64,000 nucleotides of DNA. Source: an uncultured SAR86 cluster bacterium (GTDB lineage Bacteria > Pseudomonadota > Gammaproteobacteria > Magnimaribacterales > AG-339-G14). The notes under the pieces are model-generated. The model ran no database searches. It was not told where the DNA came from and saw only the letters and a list, made by a program, of their open reading frames with translations. The number at the start of each line of letters is the position of its first letter. Position 1 is the first letter of the stretch. Position numbers and translations under genes: made by a program. This document shows positions 6,382-28,298 of the stretch, one piece after another. The stretch lies in contig CABZIF010000002.1 of NCBI GenBank assembly GCA_902525735.1, positions 5,072 through 69,071 of the forward strand. The letters run 5' to 3'.

Positions 6382-7092
6382 ATGAGAATACCACGAATTT
6401 TTTATCCTTTTAAAGCAGAAGAAAAAGACTCAATTATTTTAAATATTATTGCCTCTCATCATTTAAAAGTAATAAATATAAAAGAAGGGCAAGATGTTGA
6501 ATTGTTTAATGGTAATGGATATTTTTTTAATGCAAAAGTCATAGAACAAAATAAGAAAAACATTACTTTAAAGAGAACTTCAGATATAAATTTTCAAAAA
6601 AAACAAATTCCATCAATTAATATTGCGGTTGCAGAGATTAGATCATTTGACAAAGTTATAAGAGAAGTTTGCCAATCAGGAATTGATTCAATAAGCAGCG
6701 TGAAAACAAAAAAAACTAAATTTTCAAAGTTATCTAGTGAAAAAAAAATTATGAGATGGCAGTCGATAGCTTTTAATTCCTGTGAACAATCTGGCCTGAA
6801 TTGGGTTCCAAAAATTTATTCTAGTTCCTTGCAGGAATGGATATCTTCATCGAAATCAAAATCTAAAATTTTTTTAGATCCTAAAGCTAGAAATAATATT
6901 CAAGAATTAGAGCTATTATCATCTGTAGATATTGTAGTTGGCCCTGAAGGAGGCTTTTTAGAAGAAGAAAAAAATTTTTTTAAAAAAAATAATTTCATAG
7001 GTATTTCATGTGGTAATTTAACTTTCAGAACTGAAACTATGCCTATTGTAGCTTTGTCTATGATTAAGGCGCTTTATGGAGTTAAGAAATGA
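6382..7092 (+). CDS. rsmE: 16S rRNA (uracil1498-N3)-methyltransferase
   Basis: 236 aa. MRIPRIF... N-terminus with PUA-like domain, C-terminal SPOUT region (VGPEGGF..EE). The rsmE-gshB order is conserved. Confidence 0.8.
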   Translation: MRIPRIFYPFKAEEKDSIILNIIASHHLKVINIKEGQDVELFNGNGYFFNAKVIEQNKKNITLKRTSDINFQKKQIPSINIAVAEIRSFDKVIREVCQSGIDSISSVKTKKTKFSKLSSEKKIMRWQSIAFNSCEQSGLNWVPKIYSSSLQEWISSSKSKSKIFLDPKARNNIQELELLSSVDIVVGPEGGFLEEEKNFFKKNNFIGISCGNLTFRTETMPIVALSMIKALYGVKK

Positions 7093-8027: not shown

Positions 8028-8588
8028 ATGTTCATTAGATTTAATTTTTTTCTTACGGTTTCTTTTGGCCTACATATTTTATTGATTTTTTTTCTTTCAT
8101 TCACAGAAACTGAAAATACTTTTTCTAAAAATTTTGTTACTAGCGTTAATTTAGAATTTTCTAATTATCAAAGATTTGATAGGCCTTCTAATTTTGATCA
8201 ATATAAAAAAACGGATGAGAATCTTGGTTCAAAAAAAGAGATTTTTTCAAAAAAACTAAATACAAAAGAAAAGAAAAATCTCGCTGCAAATAGATATGTA
8301 AGTGCTTGGCAGAGAAAAATAGAAACTATCGGAAACTTAAACTACCCAGATTTTGTAGACTCATCTATTCCTCTAAAATTAACTCTTTCAGTTACTCTAG
8401 GCAAAGATGGAGACCTTTTAGATTATGCTCTTATAAAAGCGTCAGGAAATCAAAAATTGGATCAGGCGGCAATGGAAATAATTGAAATGGCTTCGCCTTT
8501 TAACGAATTTCCAGAAGAAATGGCTGATTTTGCTGAAATTACGATAATCAGAGATTGGAAGTTTGGAAATCAAGAAATTATAAAATGA
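8028..8588 (+). CDS. TonB-family C-terminal domain protein (short energy transducer)
   Basis: 186 aa with one N-terminal TM helix and a C-terminal TonB_C-like region (...LKLTLSVTLGKDGDLLDYALIKASGNQKLDQAAMEIIEMASPF...). Its position between gshB and ruvX matches Pseudomonas tonB3. Confidence 0.65.
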   Translation: MFIRFNFFLTVSFGLHILLIFFLSFTETENTFSKNFVTSVNLEFSNYQRFDRPSNFDQYKKTDENLGSKKEIFSKKLNTKEKKNLAANRYVSAWQRKIETIGNLNYPDFVDSSIPLKLTLSVTLGKDGDLLDYALIKASGNQKLDQAAMEIIEMASPFNEFPEEMADFAEITIIRDWKFGNQEIIK

Positions 8589-12745: not shown

Positions 12746-13432
12746 ATGAACAATTCTTTAATTTTTGGATCAACTGGATTTATAGGAACTAAAGTTGTAT
12801 CTCATCTAAAAAACTTTGAGGGTTCAACTATTACGATTAGCAGAAAAAAGAATCCAGATTTTGGAAGTAACGTAGACCAAATAATTGTTGAAGATTTTAA
12901 TTTGACAAATATTGATCTTCCTAAAATAGATAACGTTTTTATCTGTTTGGGGACAAAACTCAGGGCCTGGGAGCTGATTTTCATGAGCAAAGAAAAAAAA
13001 GATATTTTTATTAAAACTGATCTTGATCTTATTATTTACGCTGCAAAGAAAGCTAAAGCTTCTGGCGCGAAGACTATTTCCTTGGTTTCGGCAGTTGGAG
13101 TCAAAGAGGGATCTTTAAACACTTACATGGATATCAAAGGAAAAGTAGAAAATGAAATAATAAAATTAGAGTTTGAATCAACTAATTTTTTTAGACCAGG
13201 ACATCTTCAAGGAAAAGCTTCTTTTGAAAAATGGGATACAGCCGTAGCAGATTTTTTTTCTAAAATTATGGATGTGTTTTTGGTGGGCCCTTTTACAAAA
13301 TTTAAAAGCATAAAAGGGGACGCAGTGGCTATGGCTATGGTTAACGAAACGCTTAATAGCAAACCAGGAATTAATACTTTTTATTTCAAAGAAATGATCC
13401 AATCATTTATTAGAGCGACTCCTTCTGAATGA
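12746..13432 (+). CDS. NAD(P)H-binding Rossmann-fold oxidoreductase (atypical SDR/HTATIP2-like)
   Basis: 228 aa. N-terminal LIFGSTGFIGTKVV glycine-rich dinucleotide motif. No more specific family is recognisable by eye. Confidence 0.6.
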   Translation: MNNSLIFGSTGFIGTKVVSHLKNFEGSTITISRKKNPDFGSNVDQIIVEDFNLTNIDLPKIDNVFICLGTKLRAWELIFMSKEKKDIFIKTDLDLIIYAAKKAKASGAKTISLVSAVGVKEGSLNTYMDIKGKVENEIIKLEFESTNFFRPGHLQGKASFEKWDTAVADFFSKIMDVFLVGPFTKFKSIKGDAVAMAMVNETLNSKPGINTFYFKEMIQSFIRATPSE

Positions 13433-14406
13433 GACAATTTCCTTCCTGATTCGGGCATCATTACTCCAGGATCCAAAGAATCCATTCTATGCAATAAAAT
13501 CGACTCGTTCGGCTTACCTGGAACAATAGAAAACTTCATACCCTCGCTAGCTCTTCCTGCTGCAACTGGTTTTTTATAAATTCCTATTTTTCTGTCTTCG
13601 GATTCAGTTAAATTTAAATTCAATCCAGTCGTATCAGCTGAGCCACCAGGCATATGACAATGACCACAATTGATATCTAAATATGCTCTAGCTTTTGCAG
13701 TAAGCGGGGCAGCGTCATCTGACCAATTAACTATTAAATCGAGTGGAACATGGTCCTCGACAATTTCTTTTTCCATCCAAAAAGAAATCTGATTGGCTAA
13801 TTTTTCTTCATATTGGATAGAGAAATTTAGATTTCGAGACTTAGGACCAATTGGCATAATGGCGTTACTTTTTAAATGACATTCTTTGCATTGATTTTGA
13901 TTTGGAACCCTGTAGTTAACGTATTTTTTTTCTCCATCCAAAAAATACATCATGGATGCATGAGTATGACCAGTTACTTTTAAATATGCTTCTGTTTGTT
14001 CCTTATTCCAAACATAGGTGTGTGCTGCCCATCCTGATTCCTGATTAAGTAGCAATCTAGTCTCTAATAACATTCGGCTGCCGTTAAGTGCTTGCGGATA
14101 AGAAAAGGTTTTTATTAGAGCCGAACCTACAGGAAAATCATATACTTCATTGGGAATAAATTTAGCCTTTTTTCCTTTGGGTACGTAAACAAATCTGTGT
14201 TTATCCGCATAATCTGAAAACAAAGCAGAATGAAGAACATATGGTAAAACATTTTCCATAGGTATTTGTGCAACTGCGTCATTAAAAAACTCATAATCGG
14301 AGAGTTTTTTTTCAGGTTTTTTAGAAAGAATAGCCTCTTGATTTACCGAATTCACACAAAGAGAAAATAGAAAAAGAAAAACCAGAAAAGATTTTTTTAA
14401 TTCCAT
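13381..14406 (-). CDS. secreted diheme c-type cytochrome, function unknown
   Basis: 341 aa with an N-terminal signal peptide (MELKKSFLVFLFLFSLCVNS) and exactly two heme-attachment motifs, CKECH and CGHCH. The start overlaps the upstream beta-helix gene by 10 nt. Confidence 0.75.
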   Translation of the reverse strand: MELKKSFLVFLFLFSLCVNSVNQEAILSKKPEKKLSDYEFFNDAVAQIPMENVLPYVLHSALFSDYADKHRFVYVPKGKKAKFIPNEVYDFPVGSALIKTFSYPQALNGSRMLLETRLLLNQESGWAAHTYVWNKEQTEAYLKVTGHTHASMMYFLDGEKKYVNYRVPNQNQCKECHLKSNAIMPIGPKSRNLNFSIQYEEKLANQISFWMEKEIVEDHVPLDLIVNWSDDAAPLTAKARAYLDINCGHCHMPGGSADTTGLNLNLTESEDRKIGIYKKPVAAGRASEGMKFSIVPGKPNESILLHRMDSLDPGVMMPESGRKLSHSEGVALINDWIISLK

Positions 14407-15614
14407 TTTGAGATCGGAGGTAGGTTTGTAATTGATCCTTTAAATTCGCTCTTATCTCTTGATGGAGAATGAAAAAAAGGAAAAGCTACGTACCAAAAGA
14501 CATCCAAATCTAAGAAATTCGTATCACTAGATTCTTCAATGATTATTTTTTCTTTTTCTGGTTGACCAAAAAATAATTCGCTCATAGGCAACAATCCATC
14601 CCAAATAATGTCAGGCATATCACCTTTTGCAATATCCATTAAAATTGGTGAAAGATCTCCTCTAGAAACATCCGGTTTCATGCCAACGTTTGAGTATTGA
14701 TTGTTGTGAATTTGAATTCCTTTTGGAAAAGGATCGTAATTATCATCTCCCGATTCTAAATCTCCGGCTACTACAGCGATATGTACGGTCTGATTATTAT
14801 CAAAACTATTATCAAAAACTTCTACGTTTCTATTTGCCATAATAATAAGGCCAGTTCCACTGGGAACTAATCCAACTATGTTACCTTCTGGAGCGAAATT
14901 ATCGGTATTATTATTAAAAGATTTGTTCTGAAAGACTCTTACGAACTTACCTCCTTGCTTCGGAAGGTTAGGAAGATCAAAAATTAAAATGCCACCAGTA
15001 TTGTTAGTAGCAATATTATTATAAACATCTGCGTAATAAGAATTTTCGATTTCTATTCCAGCTACATTAAATTCGGCCCTACTATTTCTTACTACTATCT
15101 GCTCTGACTGTCCTACATATACTCCTGCATCAGAGGCACCAATAGCAACGCAACCATCAATGAGAACTCCAATAGATTCGACAGGATAAAGCCCATAGGC
15201 ACCATTTTTAGAATCTGGACCATTTGTCCATTCAGTTCTAACCTTGATAAAACTAATATTTTTTACTCCCTTAGATTTAATTGCATCTCCTTTTGCGTTC
15301 TCGATCGCAAAGTCTTGCATAAGAACATTATCTGAGGTCACTAATAAACCCTGAGCCCCTGTTTCTTGATTACTAAAATCTAAAATGGTCTCATACATGC
15401 CTTCTCCGACAATAGAAACATCGCTAACATCAAGAGATAGGCCATGATTAAGCTCATAAGTTCCTTTAGATAAAGAAATTACGTCTCCAGGCTCTGCAAG
15501 AATGAGAGCCTCTTGAATTTCATTTTGCGCATTTGGACTAGGTTGAATTATCCATTCCTCAGAAAAAATATTAGAAATAAAAAAGAAGAAAAGAAAAAGC
15601 CTAATAAATTTCAT
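14397..15614 (-). CDS. secreted parallel beta-helix repeat protein (NosD/pectate-lyase-fold), function unknown
   Basis: 405 aa with a signal peptide (MKFIRLFLFFFFISNIFS). It has successive PbH1-type turns (GAYGLYPVES.., GASDAGVYVGQSEQIVVRNS, NVAGIEIENSYYADVYNN, NNTGGILIFDL). Confidence 0.75.
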   Translation of the reverse strand: MKFIRLFLFFFFISNIFSEEWIIQPSPNAQNEIQEALILAEPGDVISLSKGTYELNHGLSLDVSDVSIVGEGMYETILDFSNQETGAQGLLVTSDNVLMQDFAIENAKGDAIKSKGVKNISFIKVRTEWTNGPDSKNGAYGLYPVESIGVLIDGCVAIGASDAGVYVGQSEQIVVRNSRAEFNVAGIEIENSYYADVYNNIATNNTGGILIFDLPNLPKQGGKFVRVFQNKSFNNNTDNFAPEGNIVGLVPSGTGLIIMANRNVEVFDNSFDNNQTVHIAVVAGDLESGDDNYDPFPKGIQIHNNQYSNVGMKPDVSRGDLSPILMDIAKGDMPDIIWDGLLPMSELFFGQPEKEKIIIEESSDTNFLDLDVFWYVAFPFFHSPSRDKSEFKGSITNLPPISKWN

Positions 15615-15651
15615 CGTAAAGTTTTAAAAGCCTAATTGTAATAAAACTTTG

Positions 15652-15680
15652 TTGAAAGATACAATGAGAATGATTATCAT
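15652..15680 (+). promoter_or_regulatory. sigma70-type promoter for fbpABC (TTGAAA-17 nt-TATCAT)
   Basis: -35 TTGAAA at 15652-15657, 17-nt spacer, -10 TATCAT at 15675-15680, about 30 nt upstream of the fbpA ATG. The Fur box overlaps the spacer and -10. Confidence 0.5.
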
Positions 15681-15684
15681 TCTT
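15666..15684. promoter_or_regulatory. Fur box in the divergent beta-helix/cytochrome and fbpABC intergenic region
   Basis: GAGAATGATTATCATTCTT matches the 19-bp consensus GATAATGATAATCATTATC at 15 of 19 positions (hand count). Confidence 0.65.
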
Positions 15685-15710
15685 TCTTTTTATAACTCTT
15701 ACTTTTTTCA

Positions 15711-16730
15711 ATGAAGATCAAATTAACTATTTTTTTATTTTTTATAGTAACCGAAGTTAGTTTTGCCTCGGAAGTTAATGTTTATACTTCGAGACATTAT
15801 GATACTGATGAAAACTTATATGATATTTTTACCGAAGAAACAGGTATTAAAGTGAATATAATTACCGCAAAAGGTAACGCCTTGATAGAAAAAATAAAAG
15901 CAGAAGATTCCAATACACTAGCCGATGTTTTTATTACCGTAGATGCAGGAAATTTATGGAAACTTCAAAAGGAAGGTTTTTTCCAAAGCATCGAATCAAC
16001 TAAAATTAAAGATACAGTTCCAAAAAGACTCAGAGGTCCAAATGATGAGTGGGTAGGGTTGGCAAAGAGGTCTAGGGTTATTTTTTATAATCCTGATAAA
16101 GTTTCAAGCGTCGAATTAGACAATCTTTCTTACGAGAATCTCTCAGATTCTAAATGGAAAGGTAGAGTAGCTATAAGAAGCTCAAACAATTTATATAATC
16201 AATCTCTAGTTGCATCTTTAATAGCCCATCACGGAATAGAAAAAACAGAAAAATGGGCTAAAGGCTTTGTTAATAATTTTGCAAGAAAACCTCAAGGCAA
16301 TGATAGGGCTCAAATAATAGCGGTAGCAAATGGGGAAGCAGATATTGCCATAGCAAATAGTTACTACATTGGATTAATGTTGTCTGGTGAAAAAGGAGAA
16401 GCTCAAAAAAAAGCGGCGATGAAAGTTGGTCTACATTTTCCCAATCAAAGTGGACGAGGTACACACATTAATATTAGTGGAGCTGGAATAATTAAGTATT
16501 CAAAAAATAAAGAAAACGCAGAAAAATTTATTGAATTTCTTCTTTCAAAAAAAGCACAAACACACATAATTAACAATACTTATGAATATCCGATTTTAGA
16601 AAACGTTAAGCCTAATAAAAATATTTTAATTTTTGGCGAAGACTTTAGAGAGGATAGTCTTTCTGTAACAAATTATGGAAAATTTAATCCAGAGGCTGTC
16701 AAGCTTATGGATAGAGTAGGGTGGCAATAA
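15711..16730 (+). CDS. fbpA: Fe(3+) ABC transporter periplasmic substrate-binding protein
   Basis: 339 aa with a signal peptide. The N-terminus ...VNVYTSRHYDTDENLYDIFTEETGIKVN... is typical of the FbpA/AfuA/FutA family. It is followed by the permease and ATPase. Confidence 0.85.
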   Translation: MKIKLTIFLFFIVTEVSFASEVNVYTSRHYDTDENLYDIFTEETGIKVNIITAKGNALIEKIKAEDSNTLADVFITVDAGNLWKLQKEGFFQSIESTKIKDTVPKRLRGPNDEWVGLAKRSRVIFYNPDKVSSVELDNLSYENLSDSKWKGRVAIRSSNNLYNQSLVASLIAHHGIEKTEKWAKGFVNNFARKPQGNDRAQIIAVANGEADIAIANSYYIGLMLSGEKGEAQKKAAMKVGLHFPNQSGRGTHINISGAGIIKYSKNKENAEKFIEFLLSKKAQTHIINNTYEYPILENVKPNKNILIFGEDFREDSLSVTNYGKFNPEAVKLMDRVGWQ

Positions 16731-16778
16731 ATTCATTAATTAGTTTTTTCTTATTGATTTAAAGATTAATATTTATTT

Positions 16779-18401
16779 GTGTTTTACAAAGCTAAATTAT
16801 TAAGTCCTTGGACTTTATTGCCATTATTGATCTTTTGTTTATTTGCAAGCCCAGTTCTCATTGTTTTAGCTAGTCTATTCGGAGAATATTCCGATAATTG
16901 GATTCACCTTTACAATTATGTTCTTGGTGATTATGTATACAATTCTTTTTTATTGATTATTGGCGTCTCATCTATTTCTCTTTTTTTAGGCATTGGAACG
17001 GCTTGGTTGACGTCAAATTTCAGTTTTTTTGGAAAAAATTTTTTTGATTGGGCATTAATCTTACCTTTAGCAGTTCCTCCTTATATTCTTGCTTACACAT
17101 TTACAGGTTTGTTTGATTCTTATGGAACTGCAAACAATTTAATTAGAGAGATTTTTTTACTCAACTCTGAATATATTTTTTTTCCTAATGTAAGAAACAT
17201 TTATGGGGCAATAATTGTTTTTTCTTTTACTTTATATCCTTACATTTATTTAGCGACAAGAATTGCTTTTATAAATCAATCAAGATCATTGAGAGAAGTG
17301 GGGGAGACCCTTGGCTTTAGCAAATTTGGAGTCTTCTTTAAGCTCGTTTTACCGATGATTAGACCAGCGATTATAGGGGGATTAATGCTAGTCATCATGG
17401 AAACTTTATCTGATTTTGGAGCAGTAGAACATTTTGCTATTCAGACTTTTACAACTGGTATTTTTAGAACTTGGTACGGGATGTATGATTTACAAACTGC
17501 AATGCAACTATCTTCATTGCTATTGATTTTTATTACTTTTTTCTTGGTCCTAGAGAGATATTCTAGAAACAATATTTCTTATACCTCCGGATCGCCTACT
17601 TATGGAAAAATTGAGAATAAACCATTAACTGGAGGAAAAAATATCTTGGCTTTTTTATTTTGTCTTACACCGCTATCAATAGGGTTTATATTACCAATAT
17701 CCGAACTAACAAATTGGGCTTTAAACTACAAGTTAGATTTTTTCGAGGCAAACTTTATCAAAAATTCTTTTAATACTATTTATTTAGCTTTATTAGCAGC
17801 AGTATTTTGTTCTTTTGTTGCTCTGATTATTAATTTTTCTGGACGGATCCAAAGAAGTAAATTCTTTGGTTTCTTAAGCTCTACTCTTGCATTGGGCTAT
17901 GCATTGCCGGGCATCATATTAGCTATTGGTATTATGCAACTATTTATTTTTCTAGATAATAATTTAAGTTTTTTAAATTTTGTTTTTACTGGCTCTGTCT
18001 TGGGCCTATTGGTTGCTTATGTAATCAAAGCTTATGCTATGTCAAATACATCTATTGAGTCAGGTTATATTAGGATAAGTCCTTATATGGAAGATGTCGC
18101 TAAAACCTTAAGAGCGTCTAATTTTAAAATACTTACACGAATACATTTGCCACTTTTAAAAACAAGTTTCTTAACCAGCATAGTTTTGGTAATTTCAGAA
18201 GTCATCAAAGAGCTTCCTGCAACTTTAATTCTTAGACCATTTAATTTTGATACTCTTGCAGTATCAACTTATATTTATGCTTCTGAAGAAAGAATGTATG
18301 AAGCTGCAGCGCCAGCAGTTGCAATTGTTCTCGTAGGATTAATACCAATTTATTTTTTAACTAAAACTATAAGATCTTCAAGACCAGGAAAAGAAAATTA
18401 A
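16779..18401 (+). CDS. fbpB: Fe(3+) ABC transporter permease (duplicated 6-TM type)
   Basis: 540 aa polytopic protein with two BPD-transporter halves. GTG start. Confidence 0.85.
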   Translation: MFYKAKLLSPWTLLPLLIFCLFASPVLIVLASLFGEYSDNWIHLYNYVLGDYVYNSFLLIIGVSSISLFLGIGTAWLTSNFSFFGKNFFDWALILPLAVPPYILAYTFTGLFDSYGTANNLIREIFLLNSEYIFFPNVRNIYGAIIVFSFTLYPYIYLATRIAFINQSRSLREVGETLGFSKFGVFFKLVLPMIRPAIIGGLMLVIMETLSDFGAVEHFAIQTFTTGIFRTWYGMYDLQTAMQLSSLLLIFITFFLVLERYSRNNISYTSGSPTYGKIENKPLTGGKNILAFLFCLTPLSIGFILPISELTNWALNYKLDFFEANFIKNSFNTIYLALLAAVFCSFVALIINFSGRIQRSKFFGFLSSTLALGYALPGIILAIGIMQLFIFLDNNLSFLNFVFTGSVLGLLVAYVIKAYAMSNTSIESGYIRISPYMEDVAKTLRASNFKILTRIHLPLLKTSFLTSIVLVISEVIKELPATLILRPFNFDTLAVSTYIYASEERMYEAAAPAVAIVLVGLIPIYFLTKTIRSSRPGKEN

Positions 18402-18403
18402 CT

Positions 18404-19060
18404 ATGTTGAAAGTAGAAAACGTATTTCATTCTTATAATCAAAAAGAAGATATTTTAAAAGGTATAAATCTTGATGTTTCAAAAGGAGAAATAATATCTA
18501 TTTTGGGAGGTTCAGGATCGGGCAAAACCTCTTTTTTAAGAATCCTCTCTGGTTTGGAAAGACCGCATAAAGGAAAAATAGAGATTGATGATGTTTTGAT
18601 TGTTTCTGAAAATTATTTTTTGCCGACTTATAAAAGAAACATCGGCCTTGTTATTCAAGAAAAGGGGCTATTTCCTCACTTAAATATTTTAAAAAATGTT
18701 TGTTTCGGCTTATTAGGCTCAAAAGAAGAAAAAAATAAAGTTGCTATTGATTTATTAACTACCTTTAAGGTTAATCAATATCAAGATCAATATCCAAATA
18801 GCCTATCAGGCGGCGAACAGCAAAGAGTTGCCATAGCGAGAGCATTAGCACCGAAGCCTAAGGTATTGTTAATGGACGAGCCATTTGGATCTTTAGATAG
18901 GGCTTTAAGAGAAAGCCTAAGAGAAGAAACCAAGCTTTTCTTAAAAAGTAACCGAATTACTTGCTTAATGGTTACTCATGATGAAGAAGATGCTCTATCT
19001 ATGAGTGATCAAATATTTCTCTTAAAGGACGGAAAACTAAATATTCATCAGCAATTGTAA
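18404..19060 (+). CDS. fbpC: ABC transporter ATP-binding protein (FbpC-like, NBD only)
   Basis: 218 aa. Walker A GGSGSGKTS, signature LSGGEQQRVAIARAL, Walker B LLMDEPF, H-loop VTHD. It has no C-terminal regulatory/TOBE-type domain. Confidence 0.85.
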   Translation: MLKVENVFHSYNQKEDILKGINLDVSKGEIISILGGSGSGKTSFLRILSGLERPHKGKIEIDDVLIVSENYFLPTYKRNIGLVIQEKGLFPHLNILKNVCFGLLGSKEEKNKVAIDLLTTFKVNQYQDQYPNSLSGGEQQRVAIARALAPKPKVLLMDEPFGSLDRALRESLREETKLFLKSNRITCLMVTHDEEDALSMSDQIFLLKDGKLNIHQQL

Positions 19061-19082
19061 AAGTTATAAGTTTATTATTAAT

Positions 19083-19101
19083 GTGAATGAGAATCATTCT
19101 T
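19083..19101. promoter_or_regulatory. Fur box (distal, weaker) upstream of the TonB-dependent receptor
   Basis: GTGAATGAGAATCATTCTT matches the Fur consensus at 14 of 19 positions (hand count). It abuts the -35 element. Confidence 0.5.
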
Positions 19102-19102
19102 C

Positions 19103-19131
19103 TTTACAAAGTTAATGATAATCATTATCAT
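19103..19131 (+). promoter_or_regulatory. sigma70-type promoter for the TonB-dependent receptor (TTTACA-17 nt-TATCAT)
   Basis: -35 TTTACA at 19103-19108, 17-nt spacer, -10 TATCAT at 19126-19131. A GAGG Shine-Dalgarno precedes the ATG at 19163. The architecture matches the fbpA promoter. Confidence 0.55.
19111..19129. promoter_or_regulatory. Fur box (proximal, near-perfect)
   Basis: GTTAATGATAATCATTATC matches the consensus GATAATGATAATCATTATC at 18 of 19 positions. It overlaps the spacer and -10. Confidence 0.8.
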
Positions 19132-19162
19132 CTGTTCGTAAATAAGCATTGAGGTAATAATT

Positions 19163-21298
19163 ATGCAAAAACTTTTATATGGAATTTTGATTTCTGCTGG
19201 ATTGATTTCTAGCAGTTTATTATTCGCACAAGATACTGAAGAATTGGAAGTAAAAGGTAAGGTTTTACAATCTGATCAAGTTACTGCTTTTAAAACTCCA
19301 GTTCCTGTTCTTAACGTTCCTCAATCCGTCTCAATAATTACTGATGACGAGATCATGATGAAAGGTTATAGAGAGCTTGGCGATATAGTTCGTTACACGC
19401 CAGGAGTAAACACAACTCAAGGAGAAGGCCATAGGGATGCCATTGTTTTCAGAGGAGTCAGATCAACTGCGAACTTTTATTTAGATGGAACTAGAGATGA
19501 CGTTCAATACTACAGATCTTTATACAATATTGAACAAGTTGAGGTAATCAAAGGAGCAAACGCTCTTTTATTTGGTCGAGATGCCAGAGGTGGCTTGATT
19601 AATCGTGTGACAAAAAAACCAGTGGTTGGTGAGTCATTTAGATCTATTAATGCTGGTATGGACAGTTTCGGTGCGTACGATATTGCATTCGATTCTAATA
19701 TGGATATTTCCGATGATAGTGCAATCAGATTAATGCTTCATAGCGATACTCTGGAAAACCACAGGGATCATTTTGATGGAGATAGAGTTGGTGCAAACAT
19801 AGTTTATAGGACTGAAATGGACGCTGATTCAACCTTAGATTTATCTTATGAGTTGGTCGATCATGAAAGATTTATTGATCGAGGTATACCTACCAGTTTG
19901 ACTTCTTACTATCCTGACTCAAGATTTGATGACGTAGTATTTGGTTCGCCCGGAATAAATCTGCAAACAACTGAAGCAGATATTTTTAAGGCAAAATTTA
20001 CTCGAGAATTATCAGACACTAGTCGTATTATTTTTTCTTTAACTGCAAATGATTTTGAAAAGATGTATAAAAATTTATACGTATCTAGCATTAATGCAGC
20101 GGGAACTACTATTGATGCAGATGGTTATCAGGACGATACGGAAAGGGAAAGCACAATCTTTAATATTGATTGGGTAAACGAAATAGAGATGGGTGATACA
20201 ACTCATACTATTCTTGCTGGTTTAGAGATTCTTGATACCGAAAACAAAAACCAACGTTATTACAAGTGTTTTTCATCACATGATGGAACAGCTGCTTTAG
20301 ACAATAACGCTGATTGTGTAGCTGGGGCAACCAACAGAAAAGGTCAAAAAGAAACTTTTACAGTTTCTAGACCTATGGACTTCACTAAAAATAGTGATGG
20401 AGTTGCGAACACTACTCATTACGATCAAGCTGGAACGTTTTATGCTAGAACTGAAACGGATGTAGAGATCACTTCCATTTCACTGCAAGACCAAATCAAC
20501 TTGAACGAAAGTATTTTACTTACCGTAGGTGGAAGATTTGATCAAATGGAGTTGACAGTACGAGATACTAGAACAACTTCTGGAGGAACAACTATAAACG
20601 ATAGAGACATCTTCTCACCAAGAGCAGGAATAACATATAAACCGCAAGAGAACGTTTCTTTATATGCAGCTTATAGCGAAAGTTATTATCCAAAAGCTGG
20701 AGAACAGTATAAGAAACAGTCAGATGCTCAAGCTATAACCGATCCAGATACTTTTGAAAATACTGAGATTGGTTTGAAAATGGAAATCAATCCTAATCTA
20801 GTTTTTACAGCAAACTATTTTGATAGCGAAAATGTAGTTTCTTTACCTGATGGACAAGGTGAAGCAGAAACGGTTAATTTGTCTGTGGATGGATTTGAAT
20901 TAGAGCTAAAAGGTCAGATAAATGAAAAACTTTATGCTGCTTTCGGTTACTCTGATTATGATGGTGAGACATCTCCTGGGACACCTGCGAAAGAGATACC
21001 AGAATCAACTACAACTGGCTGGATCAACTACGATGTATCTGACAGTTTTGGTTATGGTTTAGGTTTTACGAGACAAGGCGAATCTCAAATTAAAGATGGC
21101 GCAGCTTCTGGAGGATTGCTTCCAAGTTACACTAGATGGGACGCAGCAATGTATTGGACTCTTTCAAACGATACATCAGTGCAGTTGAACATTGAAAACT
21201 TAACCAATACTGATTATTACCCTCACGCACATTCAACTCATCAAGCATCAGTTGGAGAGGACATAAATGCGAGGTTGTCTATTAATTACAGTTTCTAA
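19163..21298 (+). CDS. TonB-dependent outer-membrane receptor (siderophore/iron-complex type)
   Basis: 711 aa. Signal peptide, plug domain (VPQSVSIITDDEI..., GEGHRDAIVFRG..., YLDGTRDDVQYYRS, VEVIKGANALLFG), beta-barrel, C-terminal aromatic residue (...LSINYSF). Confidence 0.9.
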   Translation: MQKLLYGILISAGLISSSLLFAQDTEELEVKGKVLQSDQVTAFKTPVPVLNVPQSVSIITDDEIMMKGYRELGDIVRYTPGVNTTQGEGHRDAIVFRGVRSTANFYLDGTRDDVQYYRSLYNIEQVEVIKGANALLFGRDARGGLINRVTKKPVVGESFRSINAGMDSFGAYDIAFDSNMDISDDSAIRLMLHSDTLENHRDHFDGDRVGANIVYRTEMDADSTLDLSYELVDHERFIDRGIPTSLTSYYPDSRFDDVVFGSPGINLQTTEADIFKAKFTRELSDTSRIIFSLTANDFEKMYKNLYVSSINAAGTTIDADGYQDDTERESTIFNIDWVNEIEMGDTTHTILAGLEILDTENKNQRYYKCFSSHDGTAALDNNADCVAGATNRKGQKETFTVSRPMDFTKNSDGVANTTHYDQAGTFYARTETDVEITSISLQDQINLNESILLTVGGRFDQMELTVRDTRTTSGGTTINDRDIFSPRAGITYKPQENVSLYAAYSESYYPKAGEQYKKQSDAQAITDPDTFENTEIGLKMEINPNLVFTANYFDSENVVSLPDGQGEAETVNLSVDGFELELKGQINEKLYAAFGYSDYDGETSPGTPAKEIPESTTTGWINYDVSDSFGYGLGFTRQGESQIKDGAASGGLLPSYTRWDAAMYWTLSNDTSVQLNIENLTNTDYYPHAHSTHQASVGEDINARLSINYSF

Positions 21299-22930: not shown

Positions 22931-24433
22931 TTGAAGACATTAACGATAATTTCCAGAAGAAGTATATTAGCTCAAATTCAAGCTGAGATTGTGGGCAGAA
23001 GGATTTTAGAATATTTCCCGAAAACAAAAATAAAATATATACAAAAAGATACTATAGGTGATCTAGATTTAGATACACCACTTTATAAAATGCCAGAAAT
23101 AGGTGTTTTCACCGATGATATTAGAAATGAGCTGATCCAAAAAAAAGCCGACTTAGCTGTCCATTCCTGGAAAGATTTGCCAGTCGAGTTGGAAGAAGGA
23201 ACCAAGATTTCTGCAACTATTGAAAGAGCAGATTTGAGAGATATATTAATTTTCAAAAAAAACTCGATTTCAAAGGATGATGTTTCTATATACACTTCCT
23301 CTCCTAGACGCAAAGAGAATCTTTCAAATTTCCTTCCCAAAGCTTTACCATCACAACCCAAAAAAATTAGATTTTTAGATATTCGTGGAAATATCCCAAC
23401 ACGAATAAAAAAATTAATAGGATCTGATGTCGATGGCCTTGTAATGGCAAAAGCAGCGCTAGATAGAATAATAAATGACAACACGACAAAATTTTTGAAA
23501 GAAAAAAAAGAAGTTTTAAATTTTTTTAAAGAATTAAATTGGATGGTCTTACCTTTGTCTGAGAATCCATCAGCTCCAGCTCAAGGTGCCTTAGCAATTG
23601 AATCACGATCAAAAGATGAGGAAACTTTGAAAATATTAAATAAAATTAACAATGAAGAAGTTTTTAAATCAGTAGAAAAAGAAAGAAAAATTCTAAAAAA
23701 ATATGGCGGAGGTTGTCATCAAAAAATTGGAGTGAGTCATCAAATTTTAAAAATGGGAGAGGTATTAAATTTAAAAGGAGAAACAGAGGAAGGAATTAGG
23801 CTTAATGAAAATAGTTTTTTTCCTAAAGCAAAATTTATAGATGAATCTCTTTCAAAAATTATAAGTTTTTATCCTCAAAAGCCAGAAAATTCCTCTTTTT
23901 TTGACCGGGAAATTATTCAAAATTCTTCAAAAGCATTGAAAAATATAACTAATTCAGGAATTTATGTAAGCCGAAGCAATGCGCTTGATAATTTTAGTAA
24001 TATAAAAGATTCTAATACTATCTGGACCAGTGGAATTAAGACGTGGCTATCTTTATCTCGTAAAGGTCTGTGGATAAATGGTTCTTCTGATAGCTTGGGA
24101 GAGATAGAGTCTCCTCCTGAGAACGTTTTAAAAAAAATAAAATGGTACAAAATCTCTCACAATGCTGCACCCAAAGGCGATAAAGAAATTATTCCAACTT
24201 ATAGACTTATAAAAAAAGAACTTCCCAAAGAAATTAAGGATGTGACCCATTTTTATTGGATGAGTTCTAGTTCATTCAAATATGCTGTGAAGAAATATCC
24301 TGAGATTAAAAATAGAAGTCATTCTTGTGGCCTCGGAAAAACATTTGATGAAATTAGCGCAATCATACCTGGAAAAGTTTATCCTTATCTCAAATATCAA
24401 GACTGGCTAGAAAAAATCAAGAAAGCAAAGTAA
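22931..24433 (+). CDS. hemC: hydroxymethylbilane synthase with C-terminal uroporphyrinogen-III synthase-like extension (putative HemC-HemD fusion)
   Basis: 500 aa with a TTG start. Residues 1 to about 290 are HMBS (DLAVHSWKDLP, GNIPTRIKKL, APAQGALAIESR, GGGCHQKIGVS). The roughly 200-aa tail has HemD-like features (WTSGIKTWLSL..G, FYWMSSSSFKYAV, SCGLGKTFDEI). No separate hemD is in the cluster. Confidence 0.75.
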   Translation: MKTLTIISRRSILAQIQAEIVGRRILEYFPKTKIKYIQKDTIGDLDLDTPLYKMPEIGVFTDDIRNELIQKKADLAVHSWKDLPVELEEGTKISATIERADLRDILIFKKNSISKDDVSIYTSSPRRKENLSNFLPKALPSQPKKIRFLDIRGNIPTRIKKLIGSDVDGLVMAKAALDRIINDNTTKFLKEKKEVLNFFKELNWMVLPLSENPSAPAQGALAIESRSKDEETLKILNKINNEEVFKSVEKERKILKKYGGGCHQKIGVSHQILKMGEVLNLKGETEEGIRLNENSFFPKAKFIDESLSKIISFYPQKPENSSFFDREIIQNSSKALKNITNSGIYVSRSNALDNFSNIKDSNTIWTSGIKTWLSLSRKGLWINGSSDSLGEIESPPENVLKKIKWYKISHNAAPKGDKEIIPTYRLIKKELPKEIKDVTHFYWMSSSSFKYAVKKYPEIKNRSHSCGLGKTFDEISAIIPGKVYPYLKYQDWLEKIKKAK

Positions 24434-24457
24434 CATCACATTCCAAATTTAAGAATA

Positions 24458-25450
24458 ATGAATTTTAATAGGAAATTTCCTCTTACGAGACTGAGAAGAA
24501 CTAGATCTAAACCAGGATTAAGATCCATGGTAGCCGAAGTAAACCTATCAGTAGACGACTTAATCCAACCAATTTTTATAAAAGAAAATTTAACAGGTAC
24601 AGAAAATATTGATTCGATGCCTGAAATTAAAAGATTTGGATTAGATGTTTTAAATAAAGAAATAGACGAATTAGTCTCTTTAGGTATTAAATCAGTAGCT
24701 GTTTTTCCTGTAATAGAGGAATCAAAAAAAGATGCTGCTGGTTTAGAAGCTTTAAATGAAAACAACTTTCTTACGAAAGCAATCAAACAAATCAAAGAGG
24801 CATTTCCCGAACTTATTGTTATCGTTGATGTAGCTTTAGATCCATATACTACACATGGACATGACGGCGTATTGGACAGTAACGACGATGTAGATAATGA
24901 TGCTTCTTTACTCACTCTAAAAGAACAAGCTTTGGTACTAGCCAAAGCAGGAGCAGACGTTATTGCGCCTTCGGATATGATGGATGGGAGAATCAAGTTA
25001 ATCAGGGAGGCCTTGGAAGACAATAACTATAAAAATATCGTTATATTGTCTTATGCCGCAAAATATAGTTCAAAATTTTATGGTCCATTTAAGGATGCAG
25101 TAGAATCTGCAAAATTCTTTGGAAATAAGACGAAAGATACCTATCAAATGGCTGTCAGCAACATAAATGAAGCTTTGCAGGAAGTAGCAATGGATATTGA
25201 AGAGGGTGCAGATATAGTCATGGTAAAACCAGGTTTGCCTTTTTTGGATGTGCTAAAGGCTGTCAAAGATGAATTCAAAATGCCAACCTTCGTTTACCAA
25301 GTAAGCGGTGAATATTCAATGTTGAAAGCCGCCATTGAAAGGGGCTGGCTTTCAAAAGAAGTGATGAAAGAATCTTTAATTTCCTTTAAAAGAGCTGGCG
25401 CTGACTGCATCTTAACTTATTCAGCAAAGGAAATAGCAAGAGAACTATAA
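24458..25450 (+). CDS. hemB: porphobilinogen synthase (ALA dehydratase), Asp-rich (zinc-independent) type
   Basis: 330 aa. RLRRTR..., active-site lysine regions (MVKPG). The metal site reads DVALDPYTTHGHDG instead of the Cys-rich Zn site. Confidence 0.95.
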   Translation: MNFNRKFPLTRLRRTRSKPGLRSMVAEVNLSVDDLIQPIFIKENLTGTENIDSMPEIKRFGLDVLNKEIDELVSLGIKSVAVFPVIEESKKDAAGLEALNENNFLTKAIKQIKEAFPELIVIVDVALDPYTTHGHDGVLDSNDDVDNDASLLTLKEQALVLAKAGADVIAPSDMMDGRIKLIREALEDNNYKNIVILSYAAKYSSKFYGPFKDAVESAKFFGNKTKDTYQMAVSNINEALQEVAMDIEEGADIVMVKPGLPFLDVLKAVKDEFKMPTFVYQVSGEYSMLKAAIERGWLSKEVMKESLISFKRAGADCILTYSAKEIAREL

Positions 25451-25456
25451 TAAATA

Positions 25457-26479
25457 ATGCCAAACGATAGGTTTTTAAATGCATTGCAAGGTAAGCCACA
25501 AAAAATTCCTCCAATTTGGCTTATGAGACAAGCAGGGAGATATCATTCTCACTATCAAAATTTAAAAAAATCTTTTACATTTGAAGAGCTCTGCAAATCA
25601 CCAAAACTTGCGGCAGAGACTGCCATGGGACCAATTGAAGATTTTGATTTTGATGTTGCCATATTGTTTAGCGACATTCTATTTCCATTAGAATCATTAG
25701 GGATGAATCTAAAATATGATCCAGGACCTAAATTTTCTGAGTTATTAACCTCAAAAAATTATAAAAAATTATTTAATCAGCGTCTTCCCGCTCAATCACT
25801 AAGCTTTCAGGCCGAAGCTATAGAAAGAACAATTGAAAAACTCCCAAAAGATAAGTCCATGATTGGTTTCATAGGCGGACCATGGACATTAATTTCTTAT
25901 GCGATGGGAAAAAATAAAGAAAATTCAATTGATAAACTTTCAGAATTCGACTGGAATATTATTAATGATCAAATAATTCCTTTATTAAGAGAAAATATTT
26001 CAATCCAAATAAAAGCAGGAGCTGAAATGGTCATGATTTTTGATTCGGCAGCTAATCAATTGAATAGATCAGACTTTGCCAAATATATAAAAGTAGTCTT
26101 TGAAGAAATTGTAATAAATTTTAAAAAAAAGGTTGGTTATTATGCTAAAGACGGAGTTGATTACTCCTTGATAGAAAAAATAAAAAAAGAGTCCTTTATC
26201 CCCTTAGCAGGATTAGGAATAGACTCCAATTACTCATTAGGAAATTTTTTCTCTAAATCTAGAGAAGGTTTTATTCAAGGAAATTTTGACGAAAAGGTTA
26301 TGACCCAACCACAGAATATTATGGAAAAAAACTTAGATAAGTTTATAGAAGAAACTTCCTCTTTTTCAATGGAGCAAAGAGCTGGTTGGGTTTGCGGTTT
26401 AGGACATGGAGTTCTCAAGACCACACCTGAAGATAATGTAAGAATTTTCGTAAAAAAAATTAGAGAAGCATTCGCATGA
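25457..26479 (+). CDS. hemE: uroporphyrinogen decarboxylase
   Basis: 340 aa with the PIWLMRQAGRY signature. It lies 6 nt after hemB. Confidence 0.93.
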   Translation: MPNDRFLNALQGKPQKIPPIWLMRQAGRYHSHYQNLKKSFTFEELCKSPKLAAETAMGPIEDFDFDVAILFSDILFPLESLGMNLKYDPGPKFSELLTSKNYKKLFNQRLPAQSLSFQAEAIERTIEKLPKDKSMIGFIGGPWTLISYAMGKNKENSIDKLSEFDWNIINDQIIPLLRENISIQIKAGAEMVMIFDSAANQLNRSDFAKYIKVVFEEIVINFKKKVGYYAKDGVDYSLIEKIKKESFIPLAGLGIDSNYSLGNFFSKSREGFIQGNFDEKVMTQPQNIMEKNLDKFIEETSSFSMEQRAGWVCGLGHGVLKTTPEDNVRIFVKKIREAFA

Positions 26480-27483
26480 GTTTTCTTGGTGAACAGAATT
26501 TTGAACACGATTCCTCTGAGAAAATTGGAGTATTATTATGCAATTTAGGAACTCCAGATAGTTTTAAAACAGGCGATGTTAGAAAATTCTTGAAAGAATT
26601 TTTATCTGATGGAAGAGTAGTAGAAATTCCGAAATTTATTTGGTGGTTTATTTTAAACGGAATAATTCTTATTTTTAGGCCCAAAAAATCTGCATTACTT
26701 TATGAATCTGTTTGGACAAAGGAGGGCTCTCCTTTATTAGTTTATTCCGAAAAATTAGTAAGTAAACTTTTAAAAGAGTTGCCAAACAATTATGAAATTG
26801 AATTAGCAATGAGGTATGGAAATCCCAGCATAGAGGAAGGTCTTATAGCTTTAAAAAAGAAAAATTGTAGAAACTTAATTGTGTTACCTTTATTTCCCCA
26901 ATATTCTGGAACTACTACTGGAAGTGTGTTTGACGAAGTTTCAAGAGTTCTTTCAAAGTGGCGATGGGTTCCAAATCTAAATTTTATAAATAGTTATCAT
27001 GATGACGAAGGTTATATCATTGCTTTATCAGATTCTATTAAAGAAAAATTGGAAAACGAATCCCCTCAAAAAATTGTTTTTTCTTACCACGGAATACCGA
27101 AAAGAAATTTTATCAAGGGTGATCCATACCATTGCCTATGTAAAAAAACCACACGCCTGGTGGCTGAAAGATTAGGATTAAATGAAGATAAATACATTAC
27201 AACCTTTCAATCTAGATTCGGCAGAGCAGAGTGGTTGAAGCCTTACACTAGCGAAACTATGGAAAATTTACCGTCAGAAAATATAAAGAATATTTTGGTT
27301 GTGGCTCCAGGGTTCAGTGTCGATTGTTTAGAGACCATTGAGGAGATAGACGATGAAAACAAAGAAATTTTTATTGATGCCGGCGGAGAAAAGTTTGGTT
27401 ACATTCCATGCTTAAATGATTCGCAACAACATATTAAATTCATTAAAGACTTTCTTCAAAAACAAACTTATATCTGGAAGTAA
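26476..27483 (+). CDS. hemH: ferrochelatase
   Basis: 335 aa. GVLLCNLGTPDS, LPLFPQYSGTTTGS, FSYHGIP, QSRFG...WLKPYT. ATGA overlap with hemE. Confidence 0.93.
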   Translation: MSFLGEQNFEHDSSEKIGVLLCNLGTPDSFKTGDVRKFLKEFLSDGRVVEIPKFIWWFILNGIILIFRPKKSALLYESVWTKEGSPLLVYSEKLVSKLLKELPNNYEIELAMRYGNPSIEEGLIALKKKNCRNLIVLPLFPQYSGTTTGSVFDEVSRVLSKWRWVPNLNFINSYHDDEGYIIALSDSIKEKLENESPQKIVFSYHGIPKRNFIKGDPYHCLCKKTTRLVAERLGLNEDKYITTFQSRFGRAEWLKPYTSETMENLPSENIKNILVVAPGFSVDCLETIEEIDDENKEIFIDAGGEKFGYIPCLNDSQQHIKFIKDFLQKQTYIWK

Positions 27484-28298
27484 TGGAAATAGACAAAAAA
27501 AAAGAAGAAGCTTCAGCCTGGTTTAGTTCACTTCGAGATAAATTTTGTTTAGCTTTCGAAGAAATAGATCCTGGTAGAAAATTTGAAAGAAAACTTTGGT
27601 CTCATAAAGGCTCAGGCGGAGGCGAAATAAGCATAATGCAAGGCAATATTTTTGAAAAAGTTGGAGTTAACATTTCAACTGTATCAGGAAAATTTTCAGA
27701 AGATTATAGATCACAAATTAAAGGTACAGAAAAATCTGCTAATTATTGGGCATCTGGCATTAGTTTGGTTGCTCACATGGCATCCCCAAAAATACCAGCA
27801 TTTCATTTTAATACTCGATTCTTGGTAACTGAAGACTCTTGGTTTGGTGGAGGAGCTGATATGACGCCGACTTTTGAAAATAAAAATGATACAGAAACTT
27901 TCCATAGAAAAATGAAAGAATCTTGCGATCCCACTGATAAAAATTACTACGAAGAATTTAAAAAAAATTGTGATGAATATTTCTATCTGCCTCATAGAGA
28001 TGAAGCAAGAGGAGTGGGAGGTATTTTCTTTGATCATTTAAATACGAATGACTGGGAAAAAGATTTTAATTTTATTAAAGAAGTTGGCAAAAAAACATTT
28101 GAGGCTATTTCTGAAATAGTAAATCTTCACAAAAATAAAGAATGGAATAATGAAGAGAAAGAAAAACAGCTTATAAAAAGAGGAAGATACGTAGAATTTA
28201 ATTTGATTTGGGATAGAGGAACGCTTTTTGGGTTAAAAACTGGAGGTTCCACTGAAGCAATACTTATGTCGATGCCACCTTCAGCAAAATGGAAATGA
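27483..28298 (+). CDS. hemF: oxygen-dependent coproporphyrinogen-III oxidase
   Basis: 271 aa. GGGEISIMQG.IFEK.GVN.S, HMASPKIPAFHFNTRF, WFGGGADMTP, RGVGGIFFD, GRYVEFNL..DRGT.FGL. TAATG overlap with hemH. Confidence 0.9.
   Translation: MEIDKKKEEASAWFSSLRDKFCLAFEEIDPGRKFERKLWSHKGSGGGEISIMQGNIFEKVGVNISTVSGKFSEDYRSQIKGTEKSANYWASGISLVAHMASPKIPAFHFNTRFLVTEDSWFGGGADMTPTFENKNDTETFHRKMKESCDPTDKNYYEEFKKNCDEYFYLPHRDEARGVGGIFFDHLNTNDWEKDFNFIKEVGKKTFEAISEIVNLHKNKEWNNEEKEKQLIKRGRYVEFNLIWDRGTLFGLKTGGSTEAILMSMPPSAKWK

Follow-up and report, generated by a model that had tools for sequence, protein, structure and literature searches.

The 64,000-nucleotide stretch of DNA analysed here (the window) comes from an uncultured SAR86 cluster bacterium (GenBank assembly GCA_902525735.1, contig CABZIF010000002.1, positions 5,072 to 69,071 of the forward strand). 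It contains two overlapping minus-strand genes, one for a right-handed beta-helix protein and one for a dihaem c-type cytochrome, which a first-pass annotation made from the sequence alone had proposed to be a Fur-controlled module for iron acquisition. The beta-helix gene, at 14397..15614, is an open reading frame (ORF) of 405 aa, and the cytochrome gene, at 13381..14406, is one of 341 aa. On the minus strand they overlap by 10 nt (14397..14406), where the sequence, read as ATGGAATTAA, holds both the stop codon of the beta-helix gene and the start codon of the cytochrome gene, an arrangement that implies translational coupling. Both products begin with a signal-peptide-like N-terminus, comprised of a basic n-region and a hydrophobic stretch of 12–15 residues that is modelled by AlphaFold2 (AF2) as a low-confidence helix, and this feature is kept in the homologues. 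These observations support a translationally coupled operon for exported proteins, and the overlap and the export signals are as the first-pass annotation had described them.

By their profile matches, the two genes are a regular member of a catalogued, functionally uncharacterised gene pair, TIGR03805/TIGR03806. The beta-helix protein scores 401.8 bits against TIGR03805 (cut-off 141.5), with residues 33–341 spanning positions 1–314 of the 314 in the model. The cytochrome scores 366.4 bits against TIGR03806, the "SO2930 family diheme c-type cytochrome" (cut-off 313.3), with residues 33–340 spanning positions 3–314 of 314; this family was formerly named chp_HNE_0200. Such a pair, of a beta-helix protein and a CXXCH protein of ~350 aa, had been described in the first-pass annotation as catalogued but uncharacterised, and with both proteins above the curated NCBIfam cut-offs this description proves correct. 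The profile hidden Markov model search that the annotation had suggested assigned both proteins to these two families, and to no family of known unrelated role. Searched with HMMER, the family comprises 6463 clusters of 50% identity at E<=0.001 and 4149 at E<=1e-10. It is spread over the Proteobacteria, Bacteroidota, Planctomycetota, Acidobacteriota, Marinimicrobia and other phyla, and is kept in the streamlined genomes of SAR86. The cytochrome family thus has thousands of such clusters, yet it is without a Pfam-A match at E<=0.01 or a sequence-related PDB entry, and any clue to the role of the pair would fill an annotation gap for abundant ocean bacteria. In the literature searched, SO2931 is mentioned only for its deletion, together with other putative outer-membrane cytochrome genes, from Shewanella strains.

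Do the two proteins belong together? The beta-helix gene stands immediately before the cytochrome gene in 69 of 83 loci and is fused to it in one more, which is nearly all of the loci that could be resolved; those without a called pairing are mostly failures of the ORF caller, and 10 were left unresolved. Among the 150 best representatives of the family at least 16 are fusions, with the beta-helix N-terminal and the cytochrome C-terminal, the same order as that of the genes. Conserved adjacency and frequent fusion indicate that the two proteins act as one unit, and on this comparative evidence the beta-helix protein and the cytochrome are clearly predicted to be a single functional unit. The pair in the window shares the gene order, the export signals and the two CXXCH motifs of the family, in which fusion is occasional, and there is no structural difference between them.

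The cytochrome has exactly the two CXXCH motifs that the first-pass annotation had noted, both on the minus strand: CKECH at residues 173–177 (13876..13890) and CGHCH at residues 247–251 (13654..13668). With 74 residues from one to the next, both motifs fall in the C-terminal half of the protein, after a beta domain of 140 residues. Across 151 diverse sequences C173, C176 and H177 are 99–100% conserved, C247, C250 and H251 98%, and the internal H249 of the second motif 90%. Conservation also holds for the number of motifs, of which 143 of the 150 best representatives have exactly two, 3 have three and 4 have one. The three-haem members carry an additional class-I cytochrome c domain at the C-terminus; the four with one motif, at 229–326 aa, are under the family norm and are probably partial.

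Outside the haem motifs, the conserved residues include E115, T116, R117, W126, Y131 and W133 in the N-terminal domain. The single near-invariant methionine, Met317 (98%), is probably the distal ligand of one haem, and the second haem is without an obvious conserved Met ligand. Cys17 (14356–14358), at the end of the signal peptide, aligns with a Cys in 72% of the relatives. Because this position falls in lipobox-like signal-peptide ends of other members, the cytochrome may, as many members may, be a lipid-anchored lipoprotein. At position 277 (13576–13578) 66% of the 151 members have a Cys and the window cytochrome a Tyr. In the AF2 model a well-predicted, beta-rich N-terminal domain (residues ~30–165) is followed by two small class-I-like haem domains. 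The protein matches no Pfam family at E<=0.01, and a PDB sequence/profile search gave only marginal class-I cytochromes c (E>0.2) and no sequence-related solved structure.

For the beta-helix protein, which contains no CXXCH motif, Pfam offers generic models only, Beta_helix at 51 bits and NosD at 27.8 bits (threshold 23.6). The AF2 model has a pLDDT of 87 and a pTM of 0.88; the alignment behind it was shallow (55–92% identity), since the profile search for diverse homologues gave mainly SAR86-type sequences. Foldseek returned 75 PDB matches to the model at E<=0.001. The 50 best are all beta-helix proteins, nearly all of them carbohydrate-active enzymes of the pectin-lyase fold, and the top matches are polysaccharide lyases and C5-epimerases of 12–15% identity, with E down to 5e-7 and TM up to 0.55. 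By sequence and profile the PDB gave marginal matches only, to a pectinesterase cap and phi29 gp12 (E ~1e-3 to 1e-4). The right-handed beta-helix of NosD/pectate-lyase type proposed in the first-pass annotation therefore stands, on the Pfam, AF2 and Foldseek results alike.

Mean column identity of the beta-helix protein across phyla is 45%, which is unusually high, and D110, K113, W129, Y140, Y143, D162, Y166, Q169, E188, E190 and N191 are invariant. No His or Cys is invariant in this cross-phyla alignment. An invariant acidic and aromatic surface with no invariant Cys or His points to a substrate-binding or acid-base/catalytic groove and not to a redox metal site, and the beta-helix subunit probably supplies such a substrate-binding or catalytic groove. 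The loop AYGLYPVE (residues 139–146) presumably resembles the loop YG(F/I)DPH(D/E) of AlgE4, minus its Asp and His, and is a lead only. Three proteins of 647–683 aa (P0391–P0393) have far higher beta-helix profile scores than the single-domain members, with two or three Beta_helix/NosD stretches matched, and appear to carry tandem duplicated beta-helix domains.

Several known systems resemble one or the other of these proteins. NosD, of the NosDFY system of nitrous-oxide reductase maturation (TIGR04247, PF05048), is likewise a right-handed beta-helix, and the Pfam NosD score lies just above its threshold. The window protein was rejected as a NosD on its score of 29.5 bits against TIGR04247, for which the cut-off is 300, with a match at residues 33–158 only. 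No nos-type genes (N2O reductase, NosFY-type ABC partners) were identified among the annotated genes within ~13 kb, and there was no NosD structure among the 50 best Foldseek matches. The closest structural matches, which include the C5-epimerases AlgE4 and AlgE6, RbmB, Pel9A, chondroitinase B and PL6 alginate lyases, are alike at the level of the fold, and none of these enzymes is known to work with a cytochrome partner. A likeness in overall logic is that to the periplasmic quinohaemoprotein dehydrogenases, such as PQQ sugar and alcohol dehydrogenases in which a catalytic subunit is joined by a cytochrome c relay; the cytochrome also gives a weak profile match to the cytochrome subunit of fructose dehydrogenase. 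The window pair differs from these in that its beta-helix partner has no known cofactor site and neither protein has a PQQ or flavin domain.

Among the fusions found, the one that tells most about the cytochrome module is a protein of 2157 aa encoded on plasmid pPBSW1 of Pseudoalteromonas sp. Bsw20308 (L092 6640–13113). It holds a complete SO2930-like module (residues 788–1096) with both haem motifs, in the order PKD, three starch-binding CBM26, GSDH (PQQ sugar dehydrogenase), SO2930-like dihaem module, Big_2, cytochrome c and DUF1587/1595/1592/1588/1585, and its gene is followed by a DUF1552 gene. In Sandaracinus, the gene that comes after a distant SO2930-like gene encodes a dihaem cytochrome c553. 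Together with the extra class-I cytochrome c domains of the three-haem members, the GSDH fusion and the Sandaracinus neighbour are hints of an electron-relay role. The same fusion, the carbohydrate-enzyme fold of the partner and the divergent TetR regulators found beside the pair in several Alphaproteobacteria point, loosely, to an organic, perhaps carbohydrate-like, substrate.

On balance we lean, with confidence a little better than even, towards a general periplasmic two-subunit haem redox enzyme whose role in the family is not iron uptake, and whose operon in this genome is probably Fur-responsive. The two genes would give rise to one periplasmic, possibly membrane-anchored, haem protein of two subunits. 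In it the beta-helix subunit would form the substrate-binding or catalytic groove, and the cytochrome would contribute the conserved beta-rich N-terminal domain and two c-type haems. The haem pair would move electrons, in a direction that we can only infer, between the chemistry at the interface of the beta-helix and the N-terminal domain and the general periplasmic pool of c-type cytochromes. Such a complex could serve as a stand-alone periplasmic oxidoreductase on an organic substrate, perhaps one of carbohydrate-like class. Only in the SAR86 clade of the window does the operon stand head-to-head with a variable iron-uptake cassette and share with it a spacer that contains a predicted Fur site, through which Fur would probably act on the operon.

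Several points weigh against this interpretation. The literature searched holds no biochemical, genetic or expression data on any family member. The beta-helix is without a recognisable redox cofactor site, and the GSDH fusion is a single distant example, of 28% identity. A glycan-catabolic role is weakened by the Bacteroidota loci, where polysaccharide-utilisation loci do not enclose the pair. The haem half of the cytochrome is poorly modelled, with pLDDT <50 at residues 252–322 in an AF2 model built without haem, and Foldseek gave zero matches to this model at E<=0.001; given the low confidence of the haem half, that null result is uninformative and is no proof of a new fold. Lastly, the pair always lies beside some iron transporter in the clade of the window, which could reflect function rather than history.

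Is an association with iron, then, a trait of the family or of one lineage? We surveyed a sample of 80 loci of distinct species with 10-kb flanks, from SAR86/SAR92, Alphaproteobacteria, Bacteroidota, Planctomycetota, Acidobacteriota, Hydrogenedentes, Marinimicrobia and Binatia. A homologue of FbpA, FbpB or FTR1 was found within 10 kb of the pair in none of the 80. In the 300 nt before the beta-helix gene, a Fur box of at least 15/19 was missing from all of 76 other loci, and the 16 SAR86/SAR92-type loci among them score only 11–14. TonB-dependent receptors make up 3 of 150 immediate neighbours. A Pfam tally of these neighbours counts 254 families, the commonest being TetR (6/150), and solute-binding and FTR1 families are absent from the 25 most frequent. 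Clustering of the neighbour ORFs brought out no family that recurs positionally throughout the sample; the largest positional groups are of 4–6 loci and come from closely related genomes. From these neighbourhoods the iron linkage is judged a peculiarity of the clade and not a family trait.

Enrichment of the pair near iron genes, on which the first-pass annotation had itself made its proposal depend, is thus not seen. Its iron-starvation-induced redox module, in which iron would be released and handed to FbpA, is left unsupported by the lack of FbpA, FbpB or FTR1 linkage and of Fur boxes elsewhere, and the comparative data lend no support to an undescribed iron-acquisition system. Since the iron context is not a family property, annotating the pair as iron-acquisition genes would be premature. 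On a plasmid of Novosphingobium sp. EMRT-2 (L091 3774–12543) the pair comes after a same-strand TonB-dependent receptor gene interrupted by an IS5 element, with a second receptor gene opposite, in a region that also has aldehyde, alcohol and PQQ dehydrogenase genes.

The peculiarity of the window pair is its divergent fbpA and the shared Fur site, seen only in this SAR86 clade. Across a spacer of 96 bp (15615..15710), head-to-head with the beta-helix gene as the first-pass annotation had placed it, lies fbpABC (15711..19060, plus strand), which encodes a FutA-type Fe(III)-binding protein, a permease and an ATPase and is context to the pair. That the product of fbpA is truly an Fe(III)-binding protein, of FutA/IdiA type, is shown by its matches to PDB 6g7n and 2pt1 (E ~1e-108). 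Beyond fbpABC is a gene for a TonB-dependent siderophore-type receptor (19163–21298), recognised by family and Pfam matches.

We took as the clade of the window those loci whose cytochrome is at least 72% identical. At every one of them the pair borders an iron-uptake cassette, and the content of this cassette is variable. In the window the beta-helix gene is beside fbpABC and a receptor gene; in L086 (968–6638) it is beside fbpABC and a different receptor; in L088–L090 (L088 6161–9897) it is beside fbpABC alone, with orphan Fur boxes at the would-be receptor promoter; and in L085 (5791–6696) it is beside an FTR1 permease with two REXXE motifs and a receptor 96% identical to that of the window. 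FTR1 is a neighbour only in L085, and FbpA is a neighbour only in the window's clade. Being confined to one clade, the iron context counts as a single evolutionary event. The Fur boxes of L088–L090 match at 18/19 and are at ~6450–6500, in a non-coding stretch of ~380 nt at the place expected of the receptor gene, and look like a relic promoter. The idea that the iron cassette is an island inserted between SAR86-wide flanks was rejected, since neither of the genes that flank the region, a 228-aa ORF and a 416-aa aminotransferase, has an equivalent next to the pair in the 68%-identity clade. That 228-aa ORF (12746–13432), which has a weak NAD-dependent epimerase/Rossmann match, is convergent with the cytochrome gene and overlaps it tail-to-tail by 52 nt (13381–13432), and this overlap recurs in the relatives L085, L086 and L088.

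The spacer between the beta-helix gene and fbpA must hold the promoters of both. The predicted Fur site, at 15660..15684, consists of two overlapping 19-mers, of which that starting at 15660 matches at 15/19 and that at 15666–15684 at 15/19 on the plus strand and 16/19 on the minus. In the 64 kb a match of 15/19 or better occurs at just three positions, all of them upstream of iron-uptake genes: two fall in this spacer and one before the receptor gene. The last of them (19111..19129) is, at 18/19, the best predicted Fur box in the window and is accompanied by 14/19 matches at 19083 and 19117. By chance, under a first-order Markov model, 0.88 boxes would be expected at >=15 and 0.11 at >=16 per 64 kb, and 0.0013 per 96-bp spacer. 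On these figures the predicted Fur box in the spacer is real and non-random. A Fur site in a short spacer beside an Fe(III) ABC importer is also reminiscent of the divergent Fur promoters of E. coli (fepA-fes/entC type).

A promoter-like site for fbpA, TTGAAA-17-TATCAT (15652..15680, plus strand), was found by consensus scan with 10 of 12 matches, and its -10 element is inside the Fur site. The box at 15666–15684 overlapping the fbpA -10, as claimed in the first-pass annotation, is accordingly confirmed. On the other strand the candidate promoter of the beta-helix operon, TTGTAT-18-TACAAT (15635..15664, minus strand), comes from reading the sequence; its -35 matches at 3/6, too few for it to appear in the promoter scan, and is abutted or overlapped by the Fur site. 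With no minus-strand gene upstream of the operon nearer than that at 21579, its promoter must lie within the 96-bp spacer. The predicted Fur site of ~25 bp sits mid-spacer, 46–70 nt from the beta-helix ATG, so that bound Fur would overlap RNA polymerase at almost any beta-helix promoter. From this geometry the operon in this genome is probably Fur- or iron-responsive. The sign of the response could be either: co-repression with fbpA, or activation, should iron-loaded Fur act from a position immediately before the -35. As the spacer is shared with an Fe(III) importer, the iron response of the pair should be readable from existing marine metatranscriptomes. The Fur-box-controlled operon of the first-pass annotation therefore survives in part: the box is non-random and is conserved in close relatives, but none was seen before the beta-helix gene in the 76 loci surveyed elsewhere.

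The Fur site might, alternatively, serve fbpA only, with the beta-helix/cytochrome operon constitutive from its own promoter, insensitive to iron and adjacent by accident. On our estimate this is rather unlikely. The predicted Fur box is kept in the orthologous spacers of L086 and L088–L090, always beside fbpA; its distance from the fbpA start is steady at ~27–36 nt, and that from the start of the beta-helix gene ranges between 52 and 116 nt. Between the spacers of the window and L088 a core of ~50 nt, from the Fur site to TACAAT, has one difference, and the flanks have diverged. This core holds the -10 and -35 of fbpA, plus the weak candidate beta-helix promoter on the other strand, and the fbpA elements (-10, -35 and an AT-rich upstream element) are enough to explain it fully. 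The family is without iron linkage elsewhere, and in compact SAR86 genomes unrelated genes often abut. Against accident stands the mid-spacer position of the Fur site, where bound Fur would overlap polymerase at almost any promoter of the operon, and the conservation between the window and L088 ends exactly at the candidate TACAAT -10 of the beta-helix promoter.

More specific is the proposal of a periplasmic redox module for iron uptake, which the pair would form in this lineage when iron starvation lifts repression by Fur. It would reduce or degrade Fe(III)-ligand complexes delivered by the TonB-dependent receptor and pass the iron to FutA/FbpA, or else act as the redox partner, ferroxidase or electron sink, of FTR1. 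The predicted Fur site in the shared spacer speaks for it, as does the head-to-head position of the pair with an iron transporter at every locus of the clade though the type of transporter changes. The FTR1 of L085 has no annotated adjacent partner gene of the P19, EfeO/EfeB or cupredoxin type, and its replacement of fbpABC beside the pair recalls the redox partners of FTR1 in FtrABCD and EfeUOB. A TonB gene and a five-gene haem-biosynthesis cluster are nearby. Inducing a two-haem protein under iron starvation is contrary to the usual iron-sparing logic, and would be sensible only if the protein aided iron acquisition.

Yet all of this comes from one clade, hence from one evolutionary event, and neither the linkage nor the Fur box was found at any locus surveyed outside it. 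By our estimate, receptors occur near the pair at roughly the rate expected from their commonness in these taxa. In L086 the Fur box is beside fbpA, at 98–116 nt from the start of the beta-helix gene, and between the two, ~48 nt beyond the box, is a better promoter-like site, so that even inside the clade a conserved control of the pair by Fur is not evident. An FtrABCD- or EfeUOB-type partner was rejected for the window pair, which has no P19, EfeO, EfeB or cupredoxin Pfam match and no recurrent FTR1 or Fbp linkage. As a weak negative, the accessible part of the supplement to an Fe-addition metatranscriptome lists SAR86 receptor ORFs and, in that part, no beta-helix or cytochrome c ORF. We consider the iron-uptake module improbable. 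Equally improbable is its recruitment form, in which a general enzyme would have become, in this SAR86 clade, a Fur-regulated redox partner of iron uptake, by hand-over to FutA or as ferroxidase or electron sink of FTR1. If true, recruitment to iron uptake would give a family of thousands, without assigned function, its first functional handle.

The opposite sign of regulation would make the spacer an iron-sparing switch, in which iron-loaded Fur at 15660–15684 occludes the fbpA -10 and activates the divergent haem-protein operon, so that the enzyme is produced under iron-rich conditions only. In some bacteria a Fur box placed before the -35 is an activator site, as for the Fur proteins of Neisseria and Helicobacter, and here one Fur 19-mer stops 1 nt short of the candidate -35 (TTGTAT, 15664–15659), on its upstream side. 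Such a switch would also agree with the general down-regulation of haem proteins when iron is limiting. However, the promoter assignment is weak, with its 3/6 match at the -35 and a deduced 5' untranslated region of ~13 nt, and the second 19-mer (15660–15678) covers the -35 and so favours repression. This makes an iron-sparing switch distinctly doubtful. That the cytochrome is instead a maturase, oxidatively modifying Tyr, Trp or Lys of its beta-helix partner to create a protein-derived cofactor or metal site in the manner of MauG or MbnH, is highly improbable: the obligate pairing or fusion with one specific partner, the invariant W129, Y140, Y143, Y166 and K113 of that partner, which lacks any other cofactor site, and a dihaem architecture with one haem lacking an obvious conserved Met ligand would suit it, but there is no sequence relation to CCP/MauG (Pfam E<=0.01, PDB), stoichiometric fusion to the substrate is unusual for such enzymes, and an electron relay is favoured by the GSDH fusion and by the class-I cytochrome c domains that some members have in addition. 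The likeness to CCP, MauG and MbnH-MbnP is that of an exported dihaem protein of ~340 aa encoded beside a specific exported partner. Membership of that group was rejected for want of CCP_MauG homology in the Pfam and PDB sequence/profile searches, and the architecture of CCP/MauG, as we take it to be, differs from the layout of the haem motifs in the window cytochrome. The general two-subunit haem redox enzyme, in an operon that is here probably Fur-responsive, therefore remains the reading that we prefer.

The source is a SAR86 gammaproteobacterium, with SAR86 single-cell genomes as its best genome matches and a GC content of ~32%. Rfam gave zero matches at E<=1 across 13000–19300. The TonB gene is at 8028–8588, upstream of dnaG-rpoD. 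The haem-biosynthesis cluster lies beyond the iron cassette (22931–28298) and comprises genes for porphobilinogen deaminase, ALAD, URO-D, ferrochelatase and coproporphyrinogen oxidase. In the deaminase ORF, of 500 residues, the Pfam model covers only the first ~233, and its C-terminal half may represent another, unrecognised domain joined by fusion, perhaps a uroporphyrinogen-III synthase.

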